DNA of 64,000 bases from assembly GCA_043820875.1 (NCBI GenBank), contig JBDRDI010000021.1, forward strand, positions 91-64,090. Direction: 5' to 3'. Position numbers and translations under genes: made by a program. The notes under the pieces were generated by a model that saw only the letters and a list, made by a program, of their open reading frames with translations, was not told where the DNA came from and made no database searches. Of this stretch, positions 43,083-45,931 are shown one piece after another (the stretch's first letter is position 1; each line of letters starts with the position of its first letter). Source of the stretch: a bacterium (GTDB lineage Bacteria > Patescibacteriota > Patescibacteriia > Patescibacteriales > UBA12075).

Positions 43083-43186
43083 TGTTAATTCTCAACCGCT
43101 TTCTTGTATTCCCCAAAATACCAAGTCAAAAATTCTCTGGCCACTGGCACGGCGTTAATGTTCCCCTCCCCCTTCTCCGATTAAAA
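43083..43186 (-). pseudogene. duplicated remnant of the mrdA 3' end (left direct repeat of the cassette)
   Basis: 43083..43156 is about 96% identical (3 mismatches in 74 nt) to 45827..45900. The minus-strand translation gives ...NAVPVAREFLTWYFGEYKKAVEN*, against the real PBP2 C-terminus ...NAVPVAREFLTWYFGEYKKAVDD*. It has no start codon. Confidence 0.8.
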
Positions 43187-43220
43187 CTTTTTATTTCAAC
43201 TCTATAAATACCGGCCATTC

Positions 43221-43249
43221 TTGACAAAACAGATATGGAAGTGTAAGAT
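43221..43249 (+). promoter_or_regulatory. sigma70-like promoter for the radical SAM gene
   Basis: TTGACA, a 17-nt spacer, then TAAGAT, about 60 nt upstream of the ATG. Confidence 0.5.
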
Positions 43250-43308
43250 TTTAAAAAATAAAATAAAAATCGTTCATTAACAATAAAACATAAAAGGAAA
43301 TATTGAAA

Positions 43309-44703
43309 ATGAATAAACAATATTCGATTAATCTAAGAGTCGGCTGGAGATATATTGATTCCGAAATAGTTACATTTAATTGTGCAAATCAAGAAATTGC
43401 CATTTGGAATGAGACAGCTTCTTTTTTGTGGAAAAAAATATACGAAGGCGCGACCAATCTTGATGATTTAGTAAGGCTTTTTGCCGATGAATATTCTATT
43501 GACAAAAAAATGGCAAAACGAGATATCACCGTTTTTCTTCAAGAAGCTGTTTCTCTTGATTTTATTAATTATCCAGATAACAAGCTGGAATTAAAATCAA
43601 AAGACCAAAACGACGATGGCGGAGAAAATGTTTTATTAGCCATCGAAATGAAAGCTATTGAAAAATTTATTCCTTTCGCCATAACTTTTGAAACGACTTA
43701 TTCTTGCAACGAAAAATGTGTTCATTGCTATATGGATCGTAATAAACATTCTCTTTCGTTCAACGAAGTTAAGAGAATTCTTGACGAAATCGCGGCCGAA
43801 GGTTGCTTGTTTGTCTCTTTTACCGGCGGGGAATTTTTTACTCGCGACGACGCTATGGAAATTGTGGAGTACGCCGACAAATTACATTTTGTTGTTGATA
43901 TTCTTAGCAACGGCACTCTAGTTACCGAGGACAAGGCAAACATGCTCGCACTACGTTCCGTAAGACGCGTTCAAGTAAGTCTTTACGGAGCAACCCCTGA
44001 GACACACGACTCAATTACTCGTTTATCTGGTTCGTTTAAAAAGACCTTGCAAGGTATAAATTTTTTAACCAAGGCGGGAATAAAAGTAGAAATTGCTTTT
44101 CCGCTAATGCAAATAAACTTTCATGAACGCTATCTCTTGAAAGATCTTGCCAAATCTTTAGGTTGTTTAATGTCGCCGAGTCATGTTATCACCGCTCGTA
44201 ATAGCGGGGAACAAGATACTTTTTCTTTCCGATTGAACGATGAGCAGCTAAAATTGTTTTTAGAAGATAAAGATTTATCCTCTCTTTATGCGGGACGTAA
44301 ACCATTTCAAGATCATCAATTTTATTTTGGATTTTCTGATTTAACAAGCGCTGCCCCTTGTTATAGCGGGTTTAACAGTTGTGCAATTACGCCTTCGGGC
44401 GAAGTTTTACCTTGCAATCAGCTTCTTTATAAAGTCGGCGATTTGAGGGAAAAAAACTTTTCGGGAATTTGGAACAACTCCCCACAAATTAAACATCTTC
44501 GTAATTTAACTATCGGGAATCTTCCGATATGCTCCAGTTGCCCGACTTTGTCATTTTGCGCTCGTTGTCCGGGGCTAGCCCTATTGGAAGGAGGTGATCT
44601 CTTGGGGCCATCGCCGGAGAACTGTCGAATAACAACAACCTTTGTTTCAGGGAAAGGAGGTGAAATTCATGAAAAGGAAAAACTACATTCCGCCTCGCGC
44701 TAG
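43309..44703 (+). CDS. radical SAM/SPASM-domain peptide-modifying enzyme with N-terminal PqqD-like RiPP recognition element
   Basis: N-terminal IAIWNETASFLWKKIYEGATNLDDLVRLFADEYSIDKKMAKRDITVFLQEAVSLDFI, a PqqD/RRE pattern. CNEKCVHC is the CxxxCxxC rSAM cluster. The C-terminal Cys-rich SPASM (CYSGFNSC...LPCNQ...CSSCPTLSFCARCPG). Start at ATG 43309 with AAGGAAA SD (the track starts at TTG 43303). Confidence 0.75.
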   Translation: MNKQYSINLRVGWRYIDSEIVTFNCANQEIAIWNETASFLWKKIYEGATNLDDLVRLFADEYSIDKKMAKRDITVFLQEAVSLDFINYPDNKLELKSKDQNDDGGENVLLAIEMKAIEKFIPFAITFETTYSCNEKCVHCYMDRNKHSLSFNEVKRILDEIAAEGCLFVSFTGGEFFTRDDAMEIVEYADKLHFVVDILSNGTLVTEDKANMLALRSVRRVQVSLYGATPETHDSITRLSGSFKKTLQGINFLTKAGIKVEIAFPLMQINFHERYLLKDLAKSLGCLMSPSHVITARNSGEQDTFSFRLNDEQLKLFLEDKDLSSLYAGRKPFQDHQFYFGFSDLTSAAPCYSGFNSCAITPSGEVLPCNQLLYKVGDLREKNFSGIWNNSPQIKHLRNLTIGNLPICSSCPTLSFCARCPGLALLEGGDLLGPSPENCRITTTFVSGKGGEIHEKEKLHSASR

Positions 44704-44704
44704 G

Positions 44705-44788
44705 ATGAAAGGCAATACAAAGTTGCTGATCATAGCAGCCATCCACAAAGGATGCACTTCATCCTCGTCCAGGGTTAAGAAGGGTTAA
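44705..44788 (+). CDS. 27-aa peptide ORF translationally coupled to the rSAM stop (speculative)
   Basis: gcTAGgATG arrangement. MKGNTKLLIIAAIHKGCTSSSSRVKKG. No proper SD. Confidence 0.15.
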   Translation: MKGNTKLLIIAAIHKGCTSSSSRVKKG

Positions 44789-44800
44789 TACCGATTATCC

Positions 44801-44840
44801 GCCCTGTCCAAATCTAACAATTTGGGCAGGGCTTTTCTAT
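44801..44840. terminator. intrinsic terminator between the convergent rSAM and transglutaminase-like genes
   Basis: gccctgtccaaat-ctaacaa-tttgggcagggc (13-bp stem with one G.U), followed by TTTTCT. Confidence 0.75.
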
Positions 44841-45754
44841 ATCAACTCAATATTGTTTTCAAACTTAATATTTTTCAAAGAAGCAAACACGATCGGTTGC
44901 AAAGTCTGAACCGAATTATTAGTCAAGGGTAAACCAAGTTTATTCCAATAGTTAATTTGAAAATTTTTGGGTATAACTGGTTTTAAAAAAATATTAAATC
45001 CATTTATAAAAACTATCCTGTAATCTCTCCTTTGAGCAAAATATTTTTCTCGCTTTTTTCCATTTTCCAAAGACGCATATTGCGTGTCAAAATCCAGCCA
45101 GCCAAAAGAATTAAAATACGCGCTTGCCCAGCCGTGCTCGGCAATCTTTTTTTGTTTTGGAAAAATAACAAAACCGGTATTGTTCCTAGCAGGTATCTTT
45201 AAAATTCTGCACATCGCCACAAATAAACTTGAGTATTCTCCGCAATCGCCCTCGGGCTCAGTCAAATCTAAATGCTTCACACCTCTTTGCTTAACGGGAT
45301 AACAATATCTGAAATTTTTTACAATAAAATTAAAAACGGATTGAACATTGTCTAAAATAGGATTATCGTCGTTAATTATTTTTCTAGTTAACTTTTTCAG
45401 CGCAGGAGTCTGCTCTAAAAATTTTTCATTTTTAATATATTGTTGAAACGATTTGGCAAAATACATTGGTGATAAAAAATTTTCTTTTTTCAAATCAATT
45501 TTATTTTTCCAAATAGTCGCCTTAATATTCATTTCTATGTTAATATTTTTTTCGTTTTTGAATTCAAAATACAAAATTTTATTTCCTTTATCGTCTTTAT
45601 AATATTTCGATGGTGCTGGCAAAATTGAAAAAGATTCTACTTTTTGCGTTATAGAATTTAAAGGTTGGGCTACCCAAACTTTTACAATATTATTATCTGA
45701 ACTTTTTAAAACAGCTCTGTATCTGATATGAAATTTTTTAGGAGAGTAAGTCAT
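44837..45754 (-). CDS. transglutaminase-like cysteine peptidase family protein
   Basis: GDCGEYSSLFVAMCRILKIPAR (catalytic Cys), EHGWASAY (His), GWLDFD (Asp), the transglutaminase-core triad arrangement. 305 aa. Confidence 0.65.
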   Translation of the reverse strand: MTYSPKKFHIRYRAVLKSSDNNIVKVWVAQPLNSITQKVESFSILPAPSKYYKDDKGNKILYFEFKNEKNINIEMNIKATIWKNKIDLKKENFLSPMYFAKSFQQYIKNEKFLEQTPALKKLTRKIINDDNPILDNVQSVFNFIVKNFRYCYPVKQRGVKHLDLTEPEGDCGEYSSLFVAMCRILKIPARNNTGFVIFPKQKKIAEHGWASAYFNSFGWLDFDTQYASLENGKKREKYFAQRRDYRIVFINGFNIFLKPVIPKNFQINYWNKLGLPLTNNSVQTLQPIVFASLKNIKFENNIELI

Positions 45755-45826
45755 ATTTTACAAAAATTTATTTTAATAAATTAACTAACATAAATATACA
45801 ATAAAACAATCACACAATCAATAGAG

Positions 45827-45931
45827 TGTTAATCGTCAACCGCTTTCTTATATTCCCCAAAATACCAAGTCAAAAATTCTCTGGCCACTGGCACGGCGTT
45901 AGCGCTCCCTTCTCCCCCTTCCTCAATCAAA
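45827..45931 (-). repeat. right direct repeat (authentic mrdA 3' end) matching 43083..43186
   Basis: See the pseudogene entry above. The two copies flank a 2.65-kb segment. Confidence 0.8.

Follow-up and report, generated by a model that had tools for sequence, protein, structure and literature searches.

Duplicated gene ends beside inserted DNA are known from several settings. In Escherichia coli, circular DNA bearing the fragment of a gene end was integrated by a single crossover, which left gene-end duplications of 109–950 bp on both sides of the insert (PMC3240628), and the displaced 3′ ends in type VI secretion system (T6SS) and Rhs loci have been attributed to homology-facilitated illegitimate recombination (PMC5361080, where de Vries and Wackernagel 2002 and Prudhomme et al. 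2002 are cited for the process). Integrative elements that target the 3′ ends of genes and tRNA genes, the tycheposon islands among their likes (10.1101/2020.12.28.424599), and integrase-free transfer hot spots (PMC5635113) are two further points of comparison. Here we describe a locus in a 64,000-nucleotide (nt) stretch of contig JBDRDI010000021.1 from a member of the Patescibacteria (the whole stretch is termed the window below), in which a cassette of the kind that specifies peptides made by ribosomes and modified after translation (RiPPs) lies between the 3′ end of mrdA, the essential cell-wall gene for penicillin-binding protein 2 (PBP2), and a displaced copy of that same end. Gene exchange is little understood in bacteria of the Candidate Phyla Radiation, which have tiny genomes and no cultures.

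The mrdA gene of the window (45829–47832, minus strand) encodes a 667-residue protein that matches TIGR03423 (pbp2_mrdA) with 552.9 bits (cutoff 455) and contains the Pfam domains PBP_dimer and Transpeptidase; it is the last gene of an mreB-mreC-mreD-mrdA block. A sequence-only reading of the window had reported that positions 43083–43156 repeat 45827–45900 with three mismatches in 74 nt, that the repeated segment carries the end and the stop codon of PBP2, and that the downstream copy is a remnant without a start codon, all of which our analysis bears out. The mismatch count is exact, with differences at 43090, 43091, and 43106, and the similarity continues for another ~31 nt with eight mismatches and a 2-nt gap, so that the complete pair comprises 43083–43187 and 45827–45933 (106 nt, 88.7% identity, E = 1e-31 when the window is compared with itself by blastn). 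Copy A (45827–45933, minus strand) is the functional 3′ end of mrdA and spans the last ~34 codons, the stop codon at 45829–45831, and 2 nt beyond it. Copy B (43083–43187, minus strand) is a displaced mrdA tail remnant that is truncated at its 5′ side: it translates as SEKGEGNINAVPVAREFLTWYFGEYKKAVEN followed by a stop, against EEGGEGSANAVPVAREFLTWYFGEYKKAVDD followed by a stop for copy A; a stop codon precedes it, it contains no ATG, it lies outside every listed open reading frame (ORF), and no further mrdA-like sequence was seen around it. Low complexity, raised in the same reading as a possible source of the similarity, was checked, and the repeat is ordinary coding sequence. A second short repeat within the insert (43257–43290 against 45775–45808, 74% identity) is AT-rich and was taken as chance.

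The two copies form a mosaic. The core differs at 3 of 74 positions, as against 8 of 31 positions plus the gap in the 5′ arm (Fisher p = 0.002). When A and B were compared with the mrdA tails of 80 other Candidatus Falkowbacteria loci, both were equally distant from these tails, and a foreign copy could not be identified in this way.

The arrangement of mrdA and its neighbors in the same 80 loci provides the reference for the native gene order. The closest relatives of the window mrdA occur in Candidatus Falkowbacteria and other Patescibacteria genomes (51–64% identity), and the order mreB-mreC-mreD-mrdA-[spacer]-hrcA-grpE-hsp20-dnaK is conserved. In the 68 of the 80 loci in which hrcA was found downstream of mrdA, the spacer is shorter than 250 nt in 32 and 364–5706 nt long in 36. 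The long spacers contain unrelated genes, including those for IMP dehydrogenase, GMP synthase, YdjM, thioredoxin, ABC transporters, and NlpC/P60 proteins, and two relatives with nucleotide identities of 92.5% in mrdA and 94.6% in hrcA have zero similarity in between. These contents mark the mrdA-hrcA spacer as a hot spot of gene turnover. It thereby resembles the integrase-free transfer hot spots, in which a short interval between core genes holds fast-changing, unrelated accessory genes (PMC5635113); unlike that survey of 80 bacterial species, the present case comes from Candidatus Falkowbacteria and includes explicit gene-end remnants.

In the window, the spacer measures 3.7 kb and is occupied by the cassette, by remnant B, and by a pair of ORFs with 171 and 68 codons (42255–42970, minus strand); hrcA (41443–42132, minus strand) forms its conserved right-hand border, as judged by tblastn synteny. 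The cassette is found next to mrdA in none of the 80 relatives. The 171- and 68-residue products match no Pfam or NCBIfam model, and homologues were found neither near mrdA in the 80 relatives nor in nine cassette loci that were searched, which leaves the two ORFs as lineage-specific spacer occupants that stand outside the cassette. The best promoter-like site of the region (43053–43081, minus strand; TTGACA-17-TATGAT, 11 of 12 consensus matches) is placed to serve the 171-residue gene and begins 2 nt past the end of remnant B. From this junction it follows that B is joined to native downstream DNA and A to incoming DNA, and that the promoter of the 171-residue gene lay directly 3′ of the original mrdA stop codon.

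The cassette also occurs elsewhere, in unrelated surroundings. A protein search retrieved ~85 full-length homologues of its maturase (43–74% identity), all apparently from Patescibacteria, and a metagenome scan with a radical S-adenosylmethionine (SAM) enzyme alignment returned mostly distant soil enzymes along with at least four close loci. Ten cassette contexts other than the window were analyzed (loci L081, L085, L088, L089, which is the same locus as L175, L090, L169, L170, L171, L174, and L176). All ten have the maturase gene followed by the peptide gene and a convergent gene for a transglutaminase-like protein, and the neighbors differ from context to context (ftsX and tRNA-Gln, DNA ligase, histidine kinase, rpe, glycolysis genes, and others). 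For the nucleotide sequences, blastn aligns the window with L081, L085, and L088 at 71–75% identity over 2.46–2.52 kb, with no match beyond 43265–45757, which we take as the transferable unit. The ends of the cassette share no terminal motif and have no inverted repeats, and homology between copies stops at varying points.

Taken together, the native mrdA-hrcA order, the presence of the cassette elsewhere, and the confinement of homology to 43265–45757 make insertion the only reasonable reading. The sequence-only reading had described an insertion into the 3′ end of mrdA that regenerated the gene end. Its account of an insertion, a complete mrdA, and a displaced tail agrees with the synteny, the cassette copies in other genomes, the limits of homology, and the junction of B with the promoter; its likening of the event to an integrative element is not supported, for the reasons weighed below.

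At L081, a context that is represented together with L082 and L083 in three samples, the region just upstream of the cassette (6171–6760) contains a tRNA-Gln gene (6171–6242) and, beyond it, two incomplete duplicates of its 3′ end (6440–6465 and 6659–6684), which are ~218 nt apart and are each followed by a hairpin. These copies look like stacked target-end remnants at a tRNA gene.

Direct repeats of local host sequence flank the cassette in five of the eleven contexts and in none of the other six. Besides the mrdA tails of the window, the bracketing sequences are a 38-nt half hairpin (L088), fragments of the 3′ region of a histidine kinase gene (L169), a 36-nt perfect repeat plus terminator (L170), and 120 nt of the 5′ end of rpe that include its −10 box and first 35 codons (L171). 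The borders at L169 (5700–5912 and 8447–8622) are patchworks in which a histidine-kinase 3′ fragment is fused to a 5′ piece of rmuC; their breakpoints differ between the two sides, and 5873–5912 is 100% identical to rmuC positions 2960–2999.

Duplicated gene ends likewise bracket other cargo. At L018, a 126-nt duplicate of the mrdA tail, identical but for a 3-nt gap, surrounds 3.5 kb that encode an aminotransferase, a pyridoxal phosphate-dependent decarboxylase, and an rve (DDE) transposase; the transposase gene is cut at its 5′ end and adjoins the remnant, so that this junction looks like an illegitimate join and not like the end of an element. At L053, a 38-nt mrdA-tail duplicate surrounds a single NlpC/P60 gene. 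A longer L053 remnant of 22 residues was considered and set aside, as its upstream part is the terminator hairpin of the cargo and the true remnant is ~38 nt; sliding identity of the L053 mrdA against that of the 92%-identical L063 revealed no clear drop that would mark a recombination breakpoint. At L171, a 137-nt duplicate of a Peptidase_M16 gene tail surrounds a different radical SAM cassette. This pair has a 72-nt identical core flanked by diverged arms, and a conserved core beside diverged arms, as found there and in the window, is the pattern that a crossover within a shared segment gives.

Two of these loci have further repeats. Just past the mrdA remnant of L018 are three to four 13-nt tandem units (5615–5665), followed by a 120-residue ORF (5798–6160) built of two 93-nt repeats that are 99% identical. 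The second radical SAM cassette of L171 (921–3926) encodes a 453-residue enzyme, a 37-residue peptide, and two acetyltransferases, and the two radical SAM cassettes at that locus share a promoter and leader region of 106 nt with 86% identity (1078–1181 and 5889–5994).

In total, we count eight bracketing pairs of 36–137 nt that involve six host sequences and four cargos; the duplicated segments vary in length and are independent of the cargo. The three mrdA-tail duplications are 38, ~104, and ~126 nt long and end 0, 2, and 27 nt past the stop codon; their 5′ borders differ, and all overlap the last 13 codons. As the same cassette occurs at unrelated repeats and mrdA tails occur at other cargo, no site-specific element is marked out by its site or by its cargo. 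The differences between copies and remnants, pooled over the coding pairs, fall on codon positions 1, 2, and 3 in the ratio 8/2/29 (p = 2e-7 against the one-third expected for neutral decay and p = 2e-4 against a mixed model with 0.45); 25 codons differ synonymously and 10 non-synonymously. Differences that are mostly synonymous give the copies the appearance of alleles from two genomes that diverged mainly as working gene ends. Because A and B of the window are not identical, a duplication made by the assembler is unlikely as well.

We consider it on balance probable that the cassette was inserted by homologous or illegitimate recombination with incoming DNA that carried an mrdA tail. Although the repeat, the limits of the cassette, the precursor gene, the hot spot, the recurrence at other loci, and the allele-like differences are direct observations, the recombination route is one that we infer. 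Incoming DNA in which an mrdA tail already lay beside the cargo would have recombined with the resident mrdA. The incoming DNA may have been a circular molecule that crossed over by homology within or close to the final ~70 nt (a single-crossover insertion-duplication), or a linear fragment, with a homologous crossover at one end and an illegitimate join at the other; alternatively, a ready-made tail-cargo-tail unit may have been transferred whole. In each case, copy A would complete mrdA, the 5′-truncated copy B would stay with the native downstream DNA, and an integrase encoded by the element would not be required.

The footprint belongs to known kinds of event, namely insertion-duplication or homology-facilitated illegitimate recombination, displaced gene ends, and integrase-free hot spots. 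As in Campbell-type insertion-duplication, there is one homology anchor, a duplicate of variable length beside a conserved gene, and no element-encoded recombinase; unlike the E. coli experiments, the present case is read from the sequences of uncultured Patescibacteria, the duplicates are shorter (36–137 nt), and the mosaic of the window calls for either a reciprocal crossover or a history of two steps. A second likeness is to T6SS effector-immunity, Rhs, and contact-dependent inhibition (CDI) loci, in which a module brings a new 3′ end together with cargo and orphans the old 3′ end (PMC5361080). In those systems, however, a variable toxin domain forms the displaced tip and its immunity gene the cargo, whereas here the gene is that of the housekeeping protein PBP2, the peptides encoded by the two tails are nearly alike, and the cargo serves an unrelated function.

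Several points weigh against recombination with tail-bearing DNA. RecA and DNA-uptake genes are not encoded in the window ORFs that were scanned; DNA-uptake genes do occur in Patescibacteria. One-sided recombination of a linear fragment predicts a uniformly diverged remnant, and the observed mosaic fits a reciprocal crossover better, which could be catalyzed by an integrase as well as by RecA. The first arrival of the cassette at five different host sites is not accounted for by recombination with relatives. The codon-position counts derive mostly from other loci, the window contributing three differences, and the chemistry ascribed to the cassette is entirely predicted. The nearest other mrdA product among 5.8 billion proteins is only 66% identical, and an exact look-up of the window mrdA gave no match; with no close relative in any collection searched, no empty site, donor, or excised form is visible. 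Finally, A and B are 96% identical in the core, as against at most 87% between them and any of the 80 other Falkowbacteria tails, and this greater closeness of A to B makes an in-place duplication possible at this locus.

The alternative that ranks second, and that we regard as unlikely, is a remnant of a site-specific integrative or cis-mobilizable element, with the repeats as attL and attR, an attP that contained an mrdA tail, and an integrase that was lost or acted from elsewhere. It owes this rank to the fact that an integrase would give the same mosaic: a near-identical 74-nt core beside a diverged, out-of-frame 5′ arm is the pattern of an attR if the arm is element-derived and untranslated. 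The locus resembles integrative elements at gene and tRNA 3′ ends and the tycheposon islands in its direct repeats that bracket the insert, its target gene that is completed by copy A, and its leftover target copy; the three independent mrdA-tail duplications end at or near the stop codon, and integrase-driven islands of Prochlorococcus include partial target copies and integrase-less remnants (10.1101/2020.12.28.424599). It differs from them in that the insert and the 30 other window ORFs scanned yielded no integrase or excisionase, and the only recombinase downstream of mrdA in the 80 relatives, among the matches listed, is the 5′-truncated rve transposase of L018. The mrdA-tail duplications, moreover, vary in length and boundaries as given above, four other host sequences bracket the cassette, such that five elements would be required, each of which lost its integrase, and scans of viral contigs yielded neither the mrdA tail motif nor a close homologue of the maturase. 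The sequence-only reading had likened the locus to what integrative elements leave behind at gene 3′ ends; with no integrase found in the ORFs scanned and with repeats and cargo that vary between sites, that interpretation is not supported. Ranked third, and improbable in our estimate, is a transposition-like or repair-coupled insertion of an undescribed kind that makes target duplications of 36–126 nt, the copies being blurred by later exchange between strains. Such a process would account for the five of eleven contexts in which whatever local sequence received the cassette is duplicated, for the identity of the youngest-looking pairs (36 nt at L170; 126 nt but for the 3-nt gap at L018), and for a first arrival without a donor that has the same neighbor. 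It is at odds with the lack of conserved termini, inverted repeats, or a transposase, with the varying ends of homology, with an L018 junction that cuts through a transposase gene, with allele-like differences between copies, and with the six contexts without duplication; furthermore, we know of no enzyme that makes duplications in this size range.

Two explanations remain. In one, the arrangement is old and local: the mrdA end was duplicated in place by replication slippage or template switching, independently of the cassette, or the cassette is ancestral and was lost elsewhere. A and B do resemble one another more than they resemble any other known tail, and the insert does not stand out clearly as foreign in its base composition, but the absence of the cassette beside mrdA in all 80 relatives, its unrelated contexts elsewhere, the position of the repeats exactly at the borders of the insert, and the recurrence of such bracketing in other genomes render this explanation very improbable. 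In the other, the repeat is a chance match or an artefact of metagenome assembly that joined two strain variants. The source is a metagenome-assembled genome, and repeats of ~100–130 nt fall within the k-mer range of assemblers. A blastn E value of 1e-31 speaks against chance, however, and 11 mismatches plus a gap separate the copies, in contrast to the exact repeats that an assembler makes; diverged pairs also occur in independent assemblies (L169 and L171), and L081–L083 give one context in three samples. We therefore give this explanation almost no credence.

A recurring signature emerges, accessory cassettes that lie between short duplicates of host gene ends. It lends itself to systematic searches and points to gene gain that is driven by recombination and independent of dedicated mobile-element enzymes. 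As a more tentative extension of recombination with tail-bearing DNA, the gene-end duplicates might travel with the cargo as portable homology arms, in a tail-cargo-tail format by which Patescibacteria would move cassettes without integrase or transposase; we hold this to be doubtful. If it were true, ordinary recombination would drop the unit into any relative with that gene, whatever lies downstream; genes would flow by this route in general, with the mrdA remnant as one instance of it at work, and the cargo would represent a family of ribosomal peptide natural products that is undescribed and restricted to the lineage.

The cassette itself is a horizontally acquired three-gene unit of the RiPP type, with a maturase, a precursor, and a convergent peptidase. 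The sequence-only reading had listed a plus-strand promoter, a gene for a radical SAM-SPASM enzyme with a RiPP recognition element (RRE), a convergent transglutaminase-like gene, and a shared terminator, all of which are present; it had counted two genes, and the third, that of the precursor peptide, had been overlooked. At 43221–43249 (plus strand; TTGACA-17-TAAGAT, 10 of 12 matches), a promoter-like site is placed to serve the radical SAM gene and the peptide gene. The maturase gene (43303–44703, plus strand; NCBI MFH1744829.1), among the very few plus-strand genes of the window, encodes 466 residues, or 464 from the NCBI start at 43309. Its product contains a PqqD-like RRE (PF05402, 37.7 bits with a cutoff of 23.4, residues 26–88), a radical SAM domain (PF04055, 72.3 bits), and a SPASM domain (PF13186, 43.1 bits), all above cutoff. 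The CxxxCxxC motif (C133, C137, and C140) and seven cysteines of the SPASM region (C351, C358, C369, C408, C411, C417, and C420) are invariant in 38 homologues.

In terms of known enzymes, the nearest solved structures are SkfB, PqqE, and CteB, the best match being the thioether-forming SkfB. The RRE, the CxxxCxxC radical SAM core, the seven-cysteine SPASM region, and a small adjacent precursor gene are shared with SkfB, PqqE, CteB, MftC, and AlbA; a precursor with a single cysteine and a C-terminal KKG, a convergent PF01841 partner, and scores below the NCBIfam cutoffs set the present system apart. No NCBIfam equivalog reaches its cutoff with the maturase, the best being AhbD (148.8 bits, cutoff 500); MftC scores 131.7 (cutoff 265). 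The cassette adds a new family to the known radical SAM/SPASM systems for modified peptides, and it matches no curated family that was searched.

The precursor gene (44669–44788, plus strand) encodes the 39-residue peptide MKRKNYIPPRARMKGNTKLLIIAAIHKGCTSSSSRVKKG and is preceded by a GGAGGTG ribosome-binding site. It shares the last 35 nt of the radical SAM gene, read in a different frame, and is unannotated: the NCBI accessions of the neighboring genes run consecutively (MFH1744828, 829, and 830). The protein collection does not contain this exact peptide, and neither Pfam nor NCBIfam has a model that matches it. A homologous ORF with a Shine-Dalgarno site is found in the same place in every cassette copy examined, which indicates that the gene is real. 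The conserved core reads [LV][IV]V[AG]A[IA]HKGC.S...[RK].KKG, with a typical end of ...AAIHKGC.SSS.R.KKG. A pattern search revealed a peptide ORF of 34–42 residues with a Shine-Dalgarno site and an HKGC...KKG end in 12 loci, and the ORF is also present at L169, where it is called as a 40-residue gene, and at L171.

A hairpin terminator (44801–44832, plus strand; 13-pair stem followed by a T run, −25.1 kcal/mol, z = −4.94) separates the precursor gene from the convergent gene of a 305-residue transglutaminase-like cysteine peptidase (44837–45754, minus strand; PF01841, 61.2 bits; NCBI MFH1744830.1). The nearest solved structure to this protein is 3isr, a putative cysteine protease, and its gene is convergent to the radical SAM gene in all 11 loci that extend far enough. 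The spacer of 72 nt between copy A and this gene holds a weak promoter-like site (45793–45821, minus strand; TTGATT-17-TATATT, 9 of 12) that is a consensus match only. By analogy with described RRE-dependent pathways, the maturase would bind and modify the peptide, possibly by forming a thioether from the single conserved cysteine, and the transglutaminase-like peptidase is proposed to process or trim the precursor. A literature search for the pairing of a radical SAM enzyme with a transglutaminase-like protein in Patescibacteria found nothing specific. An unannotated and strongly conserved precursor, together with its maturase and peptidase, defines a family of modified peptides in Patescibacteria and provides a concrete target for heterologous expression.

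Elsewhere in the window, a diversity-generating retroelement occupies 15903–18453 on the minus strand. It comprises a reverse transcriptase gene (15903–16802; RVT_1, 82.8 bits), a template repeat (17309–17435), and a variable repeat (17704–17830) at the 3′ end of an ORF at 17698–18453; 21 of the 22 mismatches between the template and variable repeats fall at adenines of the template. Adjoining the retroelement is a gene for a HepT-like ribonuclease (18690–19043, minus strand; PF01934, 86 bits), probably the toxin of an MNT-HepT pair. Two adjacent ORFs of 537 and 524 codons (22793–25977, minus strand) share a 61-nt stretch with 82% identity (23334–23394 and 24926–24986) and are probably tandem paralogues.

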